64,000 nt of DNA from Escherichia phage Ec_Makalu_003 (MN882349.1), one strand, 5' to 3'. Shown: positions 4,110 to 43,613, counted from the stretch's first letter. Notes: generated by a model not told the origin, from the sequence alone. Made by a program: numbers and translations.

Positions 4110-4604
4110 TTATTTTACCAGTTCTGCTAATTCTTTTTCTTTAGCTTCCAGTTCAGCCTTAAGCTGTTTAATCTCTTGTCGCTTCTTATTAGCGGCTTCC
4201 TGCTTACTATTTCGGATAATCTGATCTAGATACAACTCCCAATCCTGAATATTTTTGATAATATAACCGTCAACATTAATTGGTCGGATATTTAGTACAG
4301 CTTCCAGTTTAGTCGCAAAGACTTTAATTGCTGGGGTGAAGTATTCATATTCGTTATCTTCAAACCAATAACCTAGACTTGCATTATCAATACGAAGACG
4401 AAGTTCAAGATCAAGGTCTTTATCTTCGGTGTATAGGTCTTTTACACCCCCCATCGAACCAACAACAACTTTAAAACGAATTTTATCAACACCACCAAAC
4501 ACATCAGTAAGGATACCAGCAATTGAACTATTAGCGCAAGATTGGTCGCTGAATGCGTCAAGGTTTTCTTTAGTTACAGTATACCAAACATCTTGTACCC
4601 ACAT
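4110..4604 (-). CDS. hypothetical protein with C-terminal coiled coil
   Basis: 164-aa ORF; C-terminal K/E-rich heptad-like tail; promoter cassette upstream. Confidence 0.55.
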   Translation of the reverse strand: MWVQDVWYTVTKENLDAFSDQSCANSSIAGILTDVFGGVDKIRFKVVVGSMGGVKDLYTEDKDLDLELRLRIDNASLGYWFEDNEYEYFTPAIKVFATKLEAVLNIRPINVDGYIIKNIQDWELYLDQIIRNSKQEAANKKRQEIKQLKAELEAKEKELAELVK

Positions 4605-4662
4605 AATATAATCCTCTCGTTGTTAAGTGGGAGTATTATAGCATACTCCCTTCGCATGTCAA
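4605..4662 (-). promoter_or_regulatory. early promoter/stem-loop cassette copy C
   Basis: minus strand TTGACA-N16-TATAAT; palindrome GGGAGTA..TACTCCC encloses the -10. Confidence 0.6.
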
Positions 4663-5837
4663 GCACGAACTTTTTTCTTTACTGCTTTCACCTTCTGGCG
4701 AATTGCTCGAATCTCTTCGATCTCTTTTTCAGTCTCTTTAACAATTTCTTTGCGATTCTGAATATCTGTATCGAGATTATCATCAAGTTTAGGCAGCATG
4801 TCAATCAAGAACTTTTTAAAGTCTTTCAGGTTTCGGATAACCGCACCTTCACCCATTACCGCCACCCCTACACCATCCGGCAGATCACCAAACAGCTTAA
4901 CCAGTTCAGATAGATGATCATGATCCTCTAGTGCTTCTTCCGGTTCAGATGGCAGTTCAACAAAGTTATAACGTTCATCATTGCTGATCAGATGATACCA
5001 GCAAAGCCCGAAAGATTTAGGAGTATATTCTACACCATCAACTTCAACCGCGTCAACACTTCCGAAAGGATCTACTTTAGTTACCTTAAATCCATGTTCC
5101 AGCTTTTGAACAATTTCAATAACATGGCTGGATACGGTTTCAGTGTTAAACCAATGAGGCAAATTATGCTGATTTGGCTTGTAGCGTTCGCCTACTTTAA
5201 ATCGCTGACCTTCCGCTTGCATAGAATGAAATTGATGGTTGGTGATTTCCGCGAAGTATTCAAATTCGCCACCGTCAAACACACAAGCCCATTGATCACA
5301 AAAACGATCTGCCTTAACGGTTTCACCTTTCGCGGTGATCATGGTAGCTGATCCGTGCAATTCTTCTTCAACCAAAAAGCCATATTCGACAAAATCAGCA
5401 AGTTTCATGGCTTCTTTGTGTTCTGGGTCATGCTCTCCCCAGAATCGCTTAAATTCTTGCAAACCTTCTGGGGTAAACGAATAACATTTACCTTTTTCAA
5501 AGTAAGTCGGCATTGCATCCTCTTTCTTGTTCATCGCTTCGTATGCCTCTTTTGAGATACGTTTAAAGTATTTGCGCTCATTGTGCATAATCATAGTAGA
5601 CCAATAATAAACGATATCCTCAGCGGAATAAACTACATCTCCAGCTTCAATAGTAATAACATGACCGTGGTCATCTTTTTCTAATACTTTAAAGCCCTTT
5701 TCTACGATTTCAGCAACTCGAATATGACCACGGCGCGAAGCATCGGTCAGAATAATTGAATAGCGAGAAAAGTCTAGAAACTCATCTTTACCGCCTTCAC
5801 GGAATGCATAGTAATGACCTTCAAAGAATTTAGCCAT
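4659..5837 (-). CDS. hypothetical protein, paralog family member (two repeated domains)
   Basis: 392 aa; shares the 'GFKVL..NERKYFKRI(S/T)K' domain with the 5901..6479 and 6488..6748 products. Confidence 0.6.
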   Translation of the reverse strand: MAKFFEGHYYAFREGGKDEFLDFSRYSIILTDASRRGHIRVAEIVEKGFKVLEKDDHGHVITIEAGDVVYSAEDIVYYWSTMIMHNERKYFKRISKEAYEAMNKKEDAMPTYFEKGKCYSFTPEGLQEFKRFWGEHDPEHKEAMKLADFVEYGFLVEEELHGSATMITAKGETVKADRFCDQWACVFDGGEFEYFAEITNHQFHSMQAEGQRFKVGERYKPNQHNLPHWFNTETVSSHVIEIVQKLEHGFKVTKVDPFGSVDAVEVDGVEYTPKSFGLCWYHLISNDERYNFVELPSEPEEALEDHDHLSELVKLFGDLPDGVGVAVMGEGAVIRNLKDFKKFLIDMLPKLDDNLDTDIQNRKEIVKETEKEIEEIRAIRQKVKAVKKKVRA

Positions 5838-28464: not shown

Positions 28465-28935
28465 TTACAGTTTGGTCGTCCACTCCAGGTCTAGATCTTC
28501 GACATATTCATGTGATCGGACAATCTCTAAATCGAACTCTAGGTCAGTGCCAAATTTACGCGCACCAACATCATAAGAAAGCGTGATATGCGGTACATAT
28601 TCAGGATAATCCCACGTCGCACCTAAAGCAGTGCCGATATCGTGTCTGAATTGCATGTAGTCGCTTTCAAATGCCAGCACAAGTGCATTAGTACCGGATT
28701 GAGTTTCAAACACTTTCAGATGGCACAGAGAGCCTAAGAACTTCTCTCCTTCTTCTGGGATAAACGGAACATAAACACGAGAATATAAGATCGTGCTATG
28801 AAGTTTATCACGAGGAACGGCATTAGGCAGATCGTAGAACTCCTGCAATTTTTCAATGCGGTCTAGTGTATCCTCAGTGAATTTAACCGCCGCATATGTA
28901 CCTTTAACGGATTCTCGAAACGGGGTCATAATCAA
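28465..28935 (-). CDS. acb1: 2H-phosphoesterase (gene 57B position; Acb1-type cyclic-nucleotide phosphodiesterase)
   Basis: 156 aa; two H-x-(T/S)-x motifs ('HSTILYS', 'HITLSYD') typical of the 2H/LigT fold; immediately upstream of 57A as in T4. Confidence 0.7.
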   Translation of the reverse strand: MIMTPFRESVKGTYAAVKFTEDTLDRIEKLQEFYDLPNAVPRDKLHSTILYSRVYVPFIPEEGEKFLGSLCHLKVFETQSGTNALVLAFESDYMQFRHDIGTALGATWDYPEYVPHITLSYDVGARKFGTDLEFDLEIVRSHEYVEDLDLEWTTKL

Positions 28936-29198
28936 GCCTCCGTGATCAGTTCTACTTCCTCGTCTGCTTCTTCTGCGTCTTCTTCTTTAGGGAGAAGTGC
29001 TTTCACTTCTTCGACAATCGCATCAAGGGAAACAGTGCCGTTTTCGTCTGGCTGAATACCCAGAATGCGTACCAGTTCCATCAATACACGCTCACGATCT
29101 TTCAGTTGGCCTTCTAAGAATGCGGCCTTTTCTTGAGTGTCAAACAGACGTACTTTCAGGACATTAATCATTTGTTCATGCTGATTGGACATATTCAC
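28932..29198 (-). CDS. 57A: tail-fibre assembly chaperone gp57A
   Basis: 88 aa; coiled-coil with acidic C-tail; position before gene 1. Confidence 0.75.
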   Translation of the reverse strand: MNMSNQHEQMINVLKVRLFDTQEKAAFLEGQLKDRERVLMELVRILGIQPDENGTVSLDAIVEEVKALLPKEEDAEEADEEVELITEA

Positions 29199-29224: not shown

Positions 29225-29881
29225 TTAAATGTTCGCGAGAATCGCGCTTTCAAATTCTTCTAATGTACCATTATTTATGATAATGGTTTCACCGTCAATA
29301 GGCAAAATTCCTTTTTCGGTGGAGTGAGTCGATACAATACCAGTATCACGATGAATATGCAACACCTTTGCTCCCATAGCACGCATGAGAGCAATTTCAA
29401 TAGGCTGACGCACATCAACCACTACAAAATACCCTTCTTCATTTTTGCGCTTCATAAACTCATTCACGAAGAGATTACACCAATAAAGCGGATTGATCAA
29501 GTTAACCATTATATCAGTACCGAGAGTGGTTAACATGAGACGAATAGACCAGACGTTATTATGTTTTTCGCCAATCTCATTAACGACCTTGTAAATCTCA
29601 GACAGACGATCACAAGTAAAGGAACTACCGCCATACTTCGAATCTAGCATAAGCAGACACTGAATAAACCACTTATGCGCGGTATATGTATCAATACCTA
29701 GATCGGCTTCTCTGTCACGCCCTAACCCGTCAAAGTCAAGATAAGTCAGACCTAAGTCTGGTTGACATTCGCATAAGATTTCTTTGATCGGTGCTGCCAG
29801 TTGATAACTGTGTCCATCAATGATTAACGCGGCAGTGTCTTTTCCTACTCGCTTTTTACCACAAAGTGCAATCAATTTCAT
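29225..29881 (-). CDS. 1: deoxynucleoside monophosphate kinase
   Basis: 218 aa; P-loop 'CGKKRVGKDT'; canonical 1-3-2-4 order. Confidence 0.85.
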   Translation of the reverse strand: MKLIALCGKKRVGKDTAALIIDGHSYQLAAPIKEILCECQPDLGLTYLDFDGLGRDREADLGIDTYTAHKWFIQCLLMLDSKYGGSSFTCDRLSEIYKVVNEIGEKHNNVWSIRLMLTTLGTDIMVNLINPLYWCNLFVNEFMKRKNEEGYFVVVDVRQPIEIALMRAMGAKVLHIHRDTGIVSTHSTEKGILPIDGETIIINNGTLEEFESAILANI

Positions 29882-29896
29882 AATATAAGCCTCTTG

Positions 29897-30487
29897 TTAC
29901 TTTCTAAAAGCAGGGTGCATAGCTTTAATTCCTTCCACTCGCTGACGATCCGCCGCCTGAATTGCTGGGCGAGGAACGATCAGTTGACCATCACGTTCAA
30001 TGCTCATTGTTTTAAATGGAAGAATTGCAGTACACACCAGAGATTCATGCATATCATCGGTGTATGTTAACTCAAGTTCCCCCAATTGTGAACACCAACA
30101 ACCATAAAAGTTAAAGGTGCATACAATGTTACGGCGTTCATTGTCCATCATGTGAACTTGAACGGCTTCCGGCATTGAATCCTTCCACGCGGTGGAGTTA
30201 CCGTTATTGTAGTCTACTATAGAAAGCATCCATGTGTAAAGGTTTAGATAGCTTTCCAAATGCTCATCGACAATAAACCGGACTACCAGCGGGTCAAACT
30301 CTACATGACTGGAAGGATAATCAGCGACCGCCAAACCATATTGACCAGCAACTTGCTTAGTCGGTGGAATGGTTATAGCCGGAAGTGTAACACCTTGAGC
30401 ATTTAAAGTAAAGCCTTTTGTTAGTTGACCATCTGGAATACTGATCTGCCAGTTACTAGGGTTAGCATAGTTAAAGAGATTAGACAT
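29897..30487 (-). CDS. 3: tail completion / sheath stabiliser protein gp3
   Basis: 196 aa; position between genes 1 and 2. Confidence 0.75.
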   Translation of the reverse strand: MSNLFNYANPSNWQISIPDGQLTKGFTLNAQGVTLPAITIPPTKQVAGQYGLAVADYPSSHVEFDPLVVRFIVDEHLESYLNLYTWMLSIVDYNNGNSTAWKDSMPEAVQVHMMDNERRNIVCTFNFYGCWCSQLGELELTYTDDMHESLVCTAILPFKTMSIERDGQLIVPRPAIQAADRQRVEGIKAMHPAFRK

Positions 30488-30676
30488 TACTGATTCCTCA
30501 AATGAAAATATTTATTAACAATTGTCGCTTTGCGACGTGCCGTAGGCACTGACTACTTTTTAACCGAAACAATTTTTTATTATTCTAAAGATCTTTCTTC
30601 GTTTTGGTTATGTTTTAACCAATAACTATATTTTTATACAGTAATAAATAAAACGGGTACTATACGAGGACTTCTT

Positions 30677-30931
30677 ATGACAGAAGACATTTTGTTAAAA
30701 CTCTATGATCGTTTGGATAACGAATTAGCAACATTGCGGGGTGAAGTTCTCTATTTGTCTAAATGCAATACAGATCTGCTTAAGCAGATTGCAGAAAGGG
30801 ATGATCAAATAAAATCCCTTTCAGGTGCATTACGTGATCGCGACAAGGCATTAGAGATTTTACAGCGTGTTACCAATAAGGAAGAATTAAAAGACTTCTT
30901 ACATGGTTATGCTCATGCTATCGATCTATAA
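30677..30931 (+). CDS. small coiled-coil protein of unknown function (non-backbone insert)
   Basis: 84 aa; GAGGA RBS 7 nt upstream; ends 2 nt before a terminator hairpin; lies opposite to flanking genes 3 and 2. Confidence 0.5.
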   Translation: MTEDILLKLYDRLDNELATLRGEVLYLSKCNTDLLKQIAERDDQIKSLSGALRDRDKALEILQRVTNKEELKDFLHGYAHAIDL

Positions 30932-30958
30932 TAAAAAAAGCCCGTCATTGACGGGCTT
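30932..30958 (-). terminator. bidirectional terminator hairpin (after gene 2 and after the plus-strand ORF)
   Basis: GCCCGTCA-TTG-ACGGGC hairpin; U-tract on minus strand, weaker T-run on plus. Confidence 0.6.
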
Positions 30959-30962
30959 AATA

Positions 30963-31784
30963 TTATGCATCCTTCCAAACTTTCCTTGCGTCGTATTTCT
31001 TGCCTTTTGACATAAACTGATATGTAGGCATATAGATAATATTGCTCCAGTCTTTCGGGCTAATCTCAACAAGTTTTGTTTTAATGTGTCCCGGCAAGTA
31101 TGCTTTGATCATGTGATCACTTCCACGCATACCTTTTACATCGCTCCATTTGATTTTTAAGCGTGTTTTATTGCTCAAGGTAGGCGTAGATGCATATTGC
31201 TTTAAAAGTGCTTCCAGAAACTGCTGACGGGCTTTAGGCGTTACATAGTGTAAGTTAAGACCCAGCATTACAGTATTACCCGCCTTTGTCTTAGAATCAC
31301 CCAGACAAATGATCAGCGGGAAAACATCCCAATATGGCAAAGTGTCTTTATACTTCGCATCATACATAAAAGTATAGATTCGCCCTACTTGCGGTTTTAC
31401 AATCTGGTGTCCCTTTATTCCCGCTTTTATTGTTTTGGTAAACCATTCCTGTGATTTTTCTTTAGGACGACTCTTTGATACAGCACGCATAGACGCACGA
31501 AAATCATTAATCATCATCATTGCGCGTTGCTGCTTATTGAGACCCTTTGCACCTTTCCCTTTTAGTTTTTCAACTTCTATTGCTGTTTTAATTTCGCTGG
31601 CATAACGAGACATACTTTTAGTGAAAGTCGCATAGGCTATTCCCTTAGAATCTGCAAATGCTTTAGCTGTCATGCCTTTGGCTTTTGCTTTCGCAAATTC
31701 TACACCCAATTCGACCCACTGTTTAGACTTTCGCTTTTGGGGAGACGGCTTTTCGTCTTCTGTGATTATTTCAAATACGCTCAT
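30963..31784 (-). CDS. 2: DNA end protector protein gp2
   Basis: 273 aa; basic; canonical position. Confidence 0.8.
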   Translation of the reverse strand: MSVFEIITEDEKPSPQKRKSKQWVELGVEFAKAKAKGMTAKAFADSKGIAYATFTKSMSRYASEIKTAIEVEKLKGKGAKGLNKQQRAMMMINDFRASMRAVSKSRPKEKSQEWFTKTIKAGIKGHQIVKPQVGRIYTFMYDAKYKDTLPYWDVFPLIICLGDSKTKAGNTVMLGLNLHYVTPKARQQFLEALLKQYASTPTLSNKTRLKIKWSDVKGMRGSDHMIKAYLPGHIKTKLVEISPKDWSNIIYMPTYQFMSKGKKYDARKVWKDA

Positions 31785-31795
31785 AATATTATCCT

Positions 31796-32269
31796 CTATT
31801 TGTTAAGCCCTTTAAAGCCAAATACTTTCTTTAATGCATGTTCGGTTATGATCTTAAACTCCATGTTATGCTTTTGGCATAATTTCACGGCAGCTAACCA
31901 TTTTTCAGTATTTTTTGTGTACGTCCATACTTCATGCATATACCGTTGCTTTGTCTTCGCGGTCATTCTTTTTGGCTTTTCCGGTGGCCTTGTCTCTTTA
32001 GCTGGTTTAACTTCCCATAAATGCTCCTTGCCATCATCAAACTTAACGTAAAAATCCATAAAGTATCTGTGTCTTTTTCCATCTGTTGATGACTCATAAG
32101 GAATTACTACGGTCTCAGATCCCCATTTTGCAACTCTAGGATTGCGGTCTAGCCACTGCATGATCCATCTTTCCCAGCTTGAACGGTATGTGATTTTCCG
32201 TATATCCCCTTTATACTTTTCCTTATTCTCAGGAACATACTTGCCCTTATAAGTGTTAGATCCTCCCAT
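31796..32269 (-). CDS. 4: head completion protein gp4
   Basis: 157 aa; canonical position divergent from gene 53. Confidence 0.8.
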   Translation of the reverse strand: MGGSNTYKGKYVPENKEKYKGDIRKITYRSSWERWIMQWLDRNPRVAKWGSETVVIPYESSTDGKRHRYFMDFYVKFDDGKEHLWEVKPAKETRPPEKPKRMTAKTKQRYMHEVWTYTKNTEKWLAAVKLCQKHNMEFKIITEHALKKVFGFKGLNK

Positions 32270-32284
32270 TTTAGCACCCTTTAT

Positions 32285-32292
32285 TATAAATA
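32285..32292 (+). promoter_or_regulatory. late promoter (TATAAATA) for gene 53 operon
   Basis: exact TATAAATA about 33 nt upstream of the gene 53 ATG. Confidence 0.6.
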
Positions 32293-32324
32293 CATAATAC
32301 TATTTATCAATTGAGGGTGCTAAA

Positions 32325-42457: not shown

Positions 42458-42774
42458 ATATTAAACGGCATTATACAATGGGTAAACCAAAACATCCAAT
42501 GCATAAAGTGTTTTGGGGCTTACATCTTCAAGAAAAATGGCATGATAACTATTGGTTTTGTGACCATGATAAGAAGTGGCATTCTCAAGATGAAGTTAAT
42601 GCGATGATGGAACAGGGTATAAAGTTTAATTACTCTAATTATGACCATAGCATTACTTGTATTCGAAAATTGAAACGGTTTATTCGAAAGAATCCACAAT
42701 TTAAAAACTTTGTGTTCTTTATGTCTCATGTTTATTTGGGGCATAGCGTTACCGTAACAGCAAAGGTTAAATAA
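42445..42774 (+). CDS. cassette protein 2, Trp/His-rich, unknown function
   Basis: 109 aa; 'EKWHDNYWFCDHDKKWH' repeats the W..KWH motif. Confidence 0.55.
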   Translation: MARVNIKRHYTMGKPKHPMHKVFWGLHLQEKWHDNYWFCDHDKKWHSQDEVNAMMEQGIKFNYSNYDHSITCIRKLKRFIRKNPQFKNFVFFMSHVYLGHSVTVTAKVK

Positions 42775-43613
42775 TGGCACGACTTTCCAAACAAGAACAA
42801 AAATTACACGATCGGGCAATGGAGCTAATCAATTCAGACCGCCCATTGACATATGAAGAAAAGGAGTTTTGCTATAATAACTATCATGGAGATGGTCTAG
42901 GTGGTTCCGGTGCATTCTTTACCCCAGAGGGGCTTGCGTGGGATTTTACCATTGACGCACACTGCACCGGAAAAGTATTAGATTTGTGTGCTGGGATCGG
43001 TCGCTTATCTTTCTGTATGTTACATCGATGCAGACCAGAAAAGATCGTATGCGTCGAACTCAATCCAGAATTTTCGCGGATTGGCAAGCGACTATTACCG
43101 GAGGCAGAATGGATCACCAGCGATATATTCGAATTTGAGTCAAACGAAAAATTCGATGTGGTGATCAGCAATCCACCTTTCGGTAAAATCAATACAACCG
43201 ACACAAAGGATGTATTTGAATACACAGGCGGCGAATTTGAATTTAAGGTTATGACGTTAGGCCAGAAGTTTTCCGATGTAGGTTATTTTATTGTTCCTTC
43301 TGGTTCCGCTGGGTTTGCGTATTCTGGTAGACCTTATTATGATGGATCAGTGAAGTCTAATAAATATCTAAAGTGGAGCAAACAAACTGGCCTTGTGACT
43401 TATGCCGGATGTGGGATCGATACATCAATTTATCGCGATGAATGGCACTGCACCAACGTTTTAACAGAAGTGGTTGAGGTTCGGTATTACGAGAAAGAAG
43501 CCGTAGAAGCGCCTAAATCGCGTCCTAACGAACAAATAGAAGAAAGTAAGGAGATTACCTTACCAGAACAGGAAAGCGAGTCTGGGACGCTCTCAGACTT
43601 GTTTGACATTTAA
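42774..43613 (+). CDS. amino-methyltransferase, probably gamma-class N6-adenine DNA methyltransferase
   Basis: 279 aa; motif X 'FFTPE', motif I 'VLDLCAGIGRL', motif IV 'ISNPPFGK' in that order. Confidence 0.7.
   Translation: MARLSKQEQKLHDRAMELINSDRPLTYEEKEFCYNNYHGDGLGGSGAFFTPEGLAWDFTIDAHCTGKVLDLCAGIGRLSFCMLHRCRPEKIVCVELNPEFSRIGKRLLPEAEWITSDIFEFESNEKFDVVISNPPFGKINTTDTKDVFEYTGGEFEFKVMTLGQKFSDVGYFIVPSGSAGFAYSGRPYYDGSVKSNKYLKWSKQTGLVTYAGCGIDTSIYRDEWHCTNVLTEVVEVRYYEKEAVEAPKSRPNEQIEESKEITLPEQESESGTLSDLFDI

Follow-up and report, generated by a model that had tools for sequence, protein, structure and literature searches.

ORF130w, a conserved small gene between genes 3 and 2 of RB49-like phages, carries a late-promoter-like motif and adjoins a dispersed intergenic repeat

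In this study, a 64,000-nucleotide stretch of Escherichia phage Ec_Makalu_003 (MN882349.1), called the window below, was analysed around the gap between genes 3 and 2, which holds one small gene on the opposite strand, ORF130w. The reading that we favour, and to which we give an even chance, is that ORF130w is a real, lineage-specific late gene of the RB49-like T4-type phages. The existence of this gene is not new, since its GenBank entry dates from the deposition of the RB49 genome and it is a member of PHROG 17832; it is a catalogued, uncharacterised gene. ORF130w is an ordinary lineage-specific phage gene, and what the present analysis adds to it is a late-type motif, strong constraint, a terminator apparently shared with gene 2, and an adjacent repeat.

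Results

The distance between gene 3 (29897-30487) and gene 2 (30963-31784), both on the minus strand, is exactly 475 bp, close to the estimate of the initial annotation of this DNA, and its sole plus-strand open reading frame (ORF), at 30677-30931, encodes the 84 amino acids which that annotation had claimed (9.7 kDa; isoelectric point, pI, 5.1). The protein is 100% identical to RB49 ORF130w (AAQ15383 / NP_891701; phi1p130), which has the same 3/2 position, and residues 1-84 matched profile positions 1-84 of 84 of PHROG 17832 with an E value of 2.1e-57. The databases list it as a hypothetical protein and PHROG 17832 as being of 'unknown function', and the RB49 entries for ORF130w carry no annotation of function, promoter or terminator. 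By Nei-Gojobori counts, the ratio of non-synonymous to synonymous change (dN/dS) was 0.10, 0.09 and 0.15 against three lineages; in the comparison with lineage B there were 16.5 synonymous and 7.5 non-synonymous differences, and synonymous change was saturated. This pattern of substitution argues that the ORF is a genuine protein-coding gene under purifying selection.

The window belongs to a Krischvirus (RB49-like, T4-type coliphage): the 2.1 kb around the gap matched 58 phage records, all of them RB49-like coliphages of the genus Krischvirus, with Ec_Makalu_001 on top (99.4%). A tblastn search found the ORF in 58 phage records, again all Krischvirus, with the protein at least 99% identical in 52 of them; as no Krischvirus record lacks it (0 of 58), it is fixed. 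Among the close relatives that were fetched (isolate records and uncultured contigs), nucleotide identity is 98-100% over the ORF with 34 nt of upstream DNA. Gene 3 shows 96-97%, and certain phages show no more than 77-82% for gene 2. Judged by these alignments, ORF130w is conserved more strongly among isolates than genes 2 and 3. Only eight ORF130w clusters occur in a protein collection of 5.8 billion, and a profile search of 1.84 billion representatives returned three true matches, which added one member (P0008), the remainder being long coiled-coil proteins. A second profile search yielded no further members, and scans of the IMG/VR and JGI metagenomes yielded close relatives only.

In the uncultured T4-type relatives, which are cited below by locus number (L), the homologue always occupies the 3/2 junction, on the opposite strand, with protein identities of 94% (L014-L023), 73% (L007), 67% (L003-L006) and 42-44% (L025). 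The proteins gp3, gp2 and gp4 are 72-77% identical between the window and L003, and gp1 and gp57A 46-55%; the figures against L025 are 72-75% and 38-44%, respectively. These values indicate that, at such distances, ORF130w evolves at the pace of gp57A and gp1. The 3/2 position on the strand opposite to both neighbours is shared by RB49, Phi1, JK32, MIZ4, phiS, AV108 and the metagenome lineages L003, L014 and L025. The initial annotation had described the gene as inserted, a word that implies recent addition; this description did not survive, as the gene is fixed in 58 of 58 Krischvirus records, is better conserved than its neighbours, and has kept its place in uncultured relatives in which the identity of gp2 is no higher than 72-77%. 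A comparison of the junction in relatives had also been proposed. It was carried out here, and ORF130w was constant in Krischvirus, whereas T4 (106-bp gap) and CC31 (81-bp gap) have no gene there, so that ORF130w is lineage-specific relative to T4.

With regard to expression, the GAGGA ribosome-binding site that had been proposed is present as a Shine-Dalgarno sequence at 30666-30670 (plus strand), 6 nt before the ATG, and AGAGGA (L003), AAGGAG (L007) and GGAGG (L025) take its position in relatives. A motif scan located a T4-type late-promoter-like motif, AATAAATA, at 30643-30650 on the plus strand, 26 nt upstream of the ATG, from which transcription would start near 30656. The aligned site is a perfect TATAAATA in L003, L007 and L014, and in L025 a dedicated terminator is followed by CTAAATA and then by GGAGG. 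A late-type motif precedes the start codon by 17-40 nt in every lineage, and five lineages retain the ribosome-binding site, the reading frame and the promoter motif. Of the seven perfect TATAAATA motifs of the window, six are followed by an ATG at a distance of approximately 30-40 nt. The motif of gene 3 is likewise AATAAATA (30509-30516, minus strand, 21 nt from the gene 3 ATG; also found in L003), and that of gene 4 is GATAAATA. It was further observed that genes 53 and 4 diverge from late motifs at 32285-32315 (plus strand, TATAAATA; minus strand, GATAAATA), the two 8-mers lying 8 nt apart, and that the same divergent arrangement of 53/4 late motifs occurs in L025.

Most T4-like phages, RB49 included, have A or T at position -13 (Nolan et al. 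2006, PMC1524935), and the RB49 record labels TGTAAATA, GTAAATA and TCTAAATA as late promoters, thereby admitting weaker variants. No sigma-70 consensus promoter (TTGACA-N17-TATAAT) was found on either strand of 30488-30676, nor any conserved sigma-70 or early promoter on the plus strand of L014, L003 and L007. ORF130w accordingly resembles T4-type late genes in having a TATAAATA-type motif with A or T at -13 and no -35 element, and because of this motif its transcription is taken to be late. Late timing would make the gene mildly unusual, because early expression is the rule for the novel ORFs of T4-like phages (Nolan et al. 2006, PMC1524935). On the basis of the motif and the predicted fold described below, it is quite probable that ORF130w is transcribed late and that its product forms a soluble coiled-coil oligomer.

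The initial annotation had also placed a terminator hairpin 2 nt after the stop codon of the ORF. A GC hairpin, AAGCCCGTC-ATT-GACGGGCTT (30938-30958), is indeed present on both strands, but its stem begins 7 nt after that stop, with an A-run in between. It separates the stop codon of ORF130w (30929-30931) from that of gene 2 (30963-30965); the two are convergent, with 31 nt between them, and the hairpin is 4 nt from the stop codon of gene 2. Its assignment as the terminator of ORF130w holds in the sense that the hairpin would be shared; it is at least equally that of gene 2, with the T-run on the minus strand. In the window, the terminator scan matched the minus strand only (T7 run, 9-bp stem with 6 GC pairs, tail TTTTTTTATT), because the canonical T-run is on that strand; the plus-strand tail, TTAATATTAT, failed the scan in the window and passed it in L014 and L003. 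The fold z was -5.7 for the plus strand and -4.5 for the minus strand, and four lineages that are diverged elsewhere have exactly the same stem sequence, GCCCGTC/GACGGGC. The location between convergent stops, the folding on both strands and the scan matches in both directions in relatives together argue that this hairpin is a shared bidirectional terminator of ORF130w and gene 2. Similar bidirectional terminators of T4-like phages, such as that downstream of uvsW.1 (PMC1524935), consist of a single GC hairpin with an A-run and a T-rich run between convergent stops. In the present hairpin, the plus-strand tail TTAATATTAT forms a weaker U-run than the minus-strand tail TTTTTTTATT.

The protein is rich in leucine (17 of 84 residues). 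The initial annotation had called it a heptad-rich coiled coil and had recommended a prediction, which agreed: residues 17-62 follow one heptad register, with L, I or V at 11 of the 14 core positions (a: L17, V24, N31, I38, I45, L52, L59; d: L20, L27, L34, R41, L48, R55, L62), and AlphaFold, run with a six-sequence alignment, returned helices at residues 2-64 and 68-83 with a predicted local distance difference test score (pLDDT) of 90.5. The wider claim of an opposite-strand coiled-coil gene with its own ribosome-binding site is thus borne out by a dN/dS of about 0.1, the conserved position and the long AlphaFold helix. The blocks L-Y-x-[RK]-x-[DE]-N-E-L, L-R-D-R-x-K-A and F-L-x-G-Y-A-H are invariant. 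ORF130w would be a soluble, acidic protein of 9.7 kDa in which residues 17-62 form a parallel coiled coil of leucine-zipper type, probably a dimer, with leucine at d and beta-branched residues at a; its core would contain a buried Asn31 together with Arg41 and Arg55, and a short C-terminal helix would bear the invariant F-L-x-G-Y-A-H motif.

The heptad repeat of leucine is that of bZIP-type zippers. A basic DNA-binding region N-terminal to the zipper is absent, since residues 1-16 (MTEDILLKLYDRLDNE) are acidic, in a protein of pI 5.1. Pfam bZIP_1 was hit by P0008 only, at an E value of 0.01 that does not reach the threshold. Sequence searches of Pfam, PHROGs, NCBIfam, PADLOC and PDB gave sub-threshold coiled-coil noise besides its own PHROG, and Foldseek against viral models and PDB gave ORF130w itself and generic helices only; by these searches, no relative was detectable outside its small family.

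Upstream of the gene, the two short hairpins that had been described, GTCGC-TTT-GCGAC and GTGCC-GTA-GGCAC, are located at 30524-30536 and 30537-30549, and the AT-rich tract follows them directly (22.6% GC at 30550-30642, against 40.9% for the whole window). The view that hairpins and tract form a private upstream element of ORF130w had to be given up, because they belong to one copy of a dispersed repeat of approximately 100 bp (30515-30622), which comprises the hairpins, the 22.6% GC spacer and the inverted repeat TTGGTTA-N5-TAACCAA (30604-30622). The late-type motif of ORF130w lies outside this repeat, and the twin hairpins are not part of the expression signals of the gene.

The twin hairpins (30524-30549, both strands; 5-bp stems, 3-nt loops) abut each other. 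Single 5-bp hairpins are at chance level in the window (31 found, 30.2 expected), whereas the abutting pair occurs once in the 64 kb against an expectation of 0.07. The pair folds on both strands, with z of about -2.7 as RNA and -3.3 as DNA. Covariation was assessed over seven distinct sequences in a fixed register; to hold it, one base was doubled in the sequence of lineage B and one spacer base was removed from that of L003. Double changes were found in 4 of 10 pairs and 97% of cells were paired, a result reached by none of 500 shuffles, and controls in which the alignment was slid collapsed. Over four lineages, the stems of the first hairpin read GTCGC/GCGAC, TCTGC/GCAGA and ATTGC/GCAAT, and those of the second GTGCC/GGCAC and ATGCC/GGCAT; most lineages keep the sequence of the core of the first hairpin, GC-TTC-GC (GCGAAGC when read on the opposite strand). 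A long-range stem across the AT-rich spacer folded no better than shuffles, and this idea was dropped. Rfam gave nothing close to threshold on the 475-bp gap.

In RB49, the repeat occupies at least three loci (3/2, 35/36 and ORF164c/165c). The copy between genes 35 and 36 (L037 14001-14110) is inverted and 91.8% identical over 110 nt; its hairpin end points towards the TATAAATA of gene 36, in the same way as the hairpin end of the 3/2 copy points towards the AATAAATA of gene 3. In the ORF164c/ORF165c intergenic region (L040 3556-3763), the spacer is partly copied twice, and a twin hairpin present there, ATCGC-TTC-GCGA / ACTCC-TAC-GGAGT, shows covariation. Within the 64-kb window, neither a second copy of the repeat nor a promoter-early stem-loop cassette (PeSL) was found. 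In relatives, a T-rich run follows each hairpin on one strand, and the scan classed the two hairpins as weak terminators in opposite directions. Judged from these features, the repeat is probably a two-way but weak transcription stop between divergent late units.

The 3/2 junction of Krischvirus is polymorphic around a constant ORF130w. In phiS and AV108, an HNH endonuclease lies between the gene 3 promoter and the first hairpin; this enzyme (177-aa HNH-AP2) adjoins the hairpins and has its own TTGACA-N17-TAGATT promoter. In Phi1 and AV108, an endonuclease of 343-380 aa lies between the terminator and gene 2. The loci of these homing-type endonucleases are L010 1318-1851, L013 2117-2650 and 3154-4296, and L011 2561-3592. 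Judging from a common homology break near 30965, some twelve further records, JSE and ECD7 among them, appear to carry the endonuclease next to gene 2. JK32 (L008) has an ORF130w of A type (99.6%) together with genes 2 and 4 of the lineage B type (77.5% nucleotide identity), and the switch occurs at the terminator hairpin.

Two hybrid junctions at the repeat were observed in LF73P4, namely gene 36 (inverted)-element-ORF130w (L012, OZ035795 139390-143926) and gene 3-element-terminator-gene 35 (inverted) (L041, OZ035795 54625-58248). They fit recombination between inverted repeat copies or an assembly path switch, and the strands in the record are incompatible with one simple inversion. In addition, the records of kvi, Skers and pEJ01 start exactly at the equivalent of window position 30641, that of Sf20 ends near 30961, and many independent metagenome contigs (loci L006 and L017-L024) end 97-151 nt upstream of ORF130w. 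These ends mark the region as a recurrent assembly breakpoint, and its cause is probably the repeat together with the insertion polymorphism. Since the phiS/AV108 HNH cassette, the LF73P4 hybrids and many metagenome contig ends all have junctions at the repeat, it is probably a recombination substrate.

More distant phages were also compared at this junction. Lw1, an RB43-like Pseudotevenvirus, has a 261-aa opposite-strand gene there (L034 3372-4157), preceded by AATAAATA, with GCGAAGC/GCTTCGC mini-hairpins and similar spacer motifs; this gene was considered as a relative of ORF130w and rejected, the two being unrelated on comparison. In L025, a 168-kb uncultured T4-like contig, the 3/2 junction (4540-5070) was seen to contain AGCGATTAC-type iterons, repeated directly approximately ten times, along with several mini-hairpins. 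These are followed by a TTGACA promoter, by ORFs of 64 and 204 aa, neither of which has a PHROG or Pfam match, and then by the ORF130w homologue.

As for the gene neighbourhood, ORF130w diverges from its left neighbour, gene 3, and converges with its right neighbour, gene 2. Gene 3 was assigned as tail completion / sheath stabiliser by PHROG 45, the Pfam gp19-type tail tube family and the RB49 annotation, and gene 2 as DNA end protector by PHROG 429 and the RB49 annotation. The minus strand further carries gp57A (28932-29198; Pfam GP57, E value 1.6e-6), gene 1 for deoxynucleoside monophosphate (dNMP) kinase (29225-29881) and gene 4 (31796-32269), and genes 53 and 5 are on the plus strand of the same neighbourhood. 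According to Pfam, PHROG and the RB49 annotation, the genes around ORF130w are all morphogenetic.

Elsewhere in the window, the plus-strand gene at 42774-43613 encodes a 279-aa protein whose residues 1-250 match the PHROG 3820 DNA methyltransferase family. It has an extra acidic tail ending in GTLSDLFDI, which is nearly the C-terminus of RB49 gp43 (ASLTDLFDI). By this likeness, a possible reading is a methyltransferase anchored to the gp45 sliding clamp, encoded among late baseplate genes. Its distant homologues align only to approximately residues 234-251, which makes a Krischvirus-specific tail possible.

Discussion

If ORF130w is a late gene of this lineage, it would be transcribed late by RNA polymerase with gp55, gp33 and gp45, and the hairpin would end both its transcript and that of gene 2. 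Beyond this, we tentatively propose, while thinking it somewhat doubtful, that ORF130w assists the completion proteins gp3, gp2 and gp4 late in infection, as an accessory or an adaptor. In such an assembly role, the zipper would bring about dimerisation, with the conserved C-terminal helix as the binding site for a partner, for which the tail terminator gp3, the DNA-end protector gp2 and the head completion protein gp4 are the candidates. Several points weigh against this account. The motif in the window, AATAAATA, falls short of the perfect TATAAATA, and the RB49 GenBank record annotates some late promoters, none of them at ORF130w. The literature searched contained no paper naming ORF130w and no Krischvirus transcriptome or virion proteome. 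The role in morphogenesis is suggested by timing, position and type of fold; family, profile, fold and PDB searches revealed no homology to any assembly factor. Furthermore, T4 and CC31 build virions with no gene at 3/2, so that there can be no general requirement for it in T4-type assembly.

The repeat beside the gene invites comparison with the PeSLs of RB49 and phi1 (Arbiol et al. 2010, PMC2839356; Comeau et al. 2014, PMC4122927). These carry a near-perfect TTGACA-N17-TATAAT promoter, often have stems of G-run/C-run type, and are concentrated in hyperplastic early regions. Like them, the repeat is a short, conserved intergenic stem-loop element that bounds ORFan cassettes and marks recombination junctions (in phiS, AV108 and LF73P4), and it is dispersed over at least three RB49 loci. 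Unlike them, it has no sigma-70 promoter in the window, its stems are of 5 bp with 3-nt loops, and two of its copies lie immediately upstream of the late-promoter motifs of conserved-core late genes. A PeSL-like arrangement does occur in phiS, where the hairpins lead directly into TTGACA-N17-TAGATT on the minus strand. Since it has no sigma-70 consensus and its stem type is different, the repeat falls outside the definition of a PeSL, although it shares the conserved, repeated intergenic stem-loop. A broader proposal, which we regard as speculative and rather unlikely, would make the repeat a previously undescribed counterpart of PeSLs that has no sigma-70 promoter, insulates divergent late units, and serves as a substrate for module swaps, homing-endonuclease insertions and large rearrangements, with ORF130w as a fixed lineage-specific late leucine-zipper adaptor for head and tail completion.

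Among the other explanations, one that we judge unlikely is that ORF130w is a late cytoplasmic regulator, either a RIII-like antiholin that stabilises lysis inhibition or a gp45-clamp adaptor that tunes late transcription or replication. ORF130w does resemble T4 RIII (82 aa) in size, in its helical coiled coil and in having no membrane or signal segment, and RB49 has no annotated rIII between 30.3 and 31, the position of rIII in T4. However, the two differ in genomic location, and homology to T4 RIII was rejected when a profile comparison (hhalign) gave a probability of only 0.6%. The clamp-adaptor version draws on the conserved L-K-D-F-L-H-G of ORF130w, which is loosely like the L-x-D-hydrophobic-hydrophobic core of RB49 clamp-binding tails (gp43 SLTDLFDI, gp55 SLDQFYEIEN). 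This likeness, however, amounts to five loosely defined residues inside a predicted helix, 7 residues from the C-terminus; the tail of RB49 gp33, NTLDI, has nothing in common with it, and the extreme C-terminus of ORF130w, which ends in ELKDFLHGYAHAIDL, is unconserved.

Low probability is likewise assigned to a late host-directed or anti-defence accessory, needed on some hosts only and carried as a moron-like passenger in a plastic spot. The tiny, lineage-restricted family (the eight clusters and three true matches given above) is in keeping with this, as is the plasticity of the junction, which has HNH and other endonucleases on either side and the unrelated opposite-strand gene in Lw1. Against it, ORF130w is retained by all 58 isolates, and it is conserved above its essential neighbours, unlike typical dispensable ORFans. 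The late-type motif and the lack of an early promoter are also at odds with the usually early expression of novel T4-like ORFs (PMC1524935), and neither PADLOC nor any other resource gave a family match.

The tail-fibre chaperone gp57A, encoded two genes away, has a long-helix character. A diverged paralogue or functional twin of it would explain why ORF130w (84 vs 88 aa) is of similar length, acidity and helical character in the same gene cluster, and LRDRDKALEILQRV of ORF130w is locally like LKDRERVLMELVRI of gp57A. Nevertheless, this explanation is very unlikely. BLASTP produced no alignment at E values up to 100, hhalign gave a probability of 2.4% over 18 columns, and paralogy was rejected on these two comparisons. 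Pfam GP57 (PF17594) matches gp57A and not ORF130w, the two genes are on opposite strands, as in the comparison with T4 gp57A, which is also small, acidic and without sequence or profile similarity to ORF130w, and a normal gp57A is kept in all lineages as well.

There is only a slight chance that ORF130w arrived recently in a PeSL-type mobile cassette (early promoter, stem-loop and ORFan) or as the cargo of a homing endonuclease. Conserved stem-loops do bound the ORF130w cassette at the recombination junctions of relatives, and in phiS and AV108 the twin hairpin passes directly into the minus-strand promoter that drives the HNH endonuclease. Yet a sigma-70 consensus promoter is absent from the window, the stems differ from the G-run/C-run stems of RB49 PeSLs (PMC4122927, PMC2839356), and ORF130w is old, with a single copy at a single location, where endonucleases come and go around it while it stays. 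Finally, a chance ORF in an intergenic spacer, from which no protein is made, might be suspected from a short, AT-rich frame that has no homologue of known function, but it is extremely improbable in view of a dN/dS of about 0.1 with saturated synonymous change, the frame, ribosome-binding site and promoter motif kept in five lineages, and the confident structure prediction.

In conclusion, ORF130w stands among the few lineage-specific T4-type ORFs that have a late-promoter motif instead of an early promoter. Its location inside the conserved morphogenesis core, together with a constraint stronger than that on its essential neighbours, makes it a reasonable lineage-specific candidate for assembly or late regulation. 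Moreover, the dispersed repeat at recombination junctions matters for engineering and assembling the genomes of Krischvirus phages, which are used in phage therapy.

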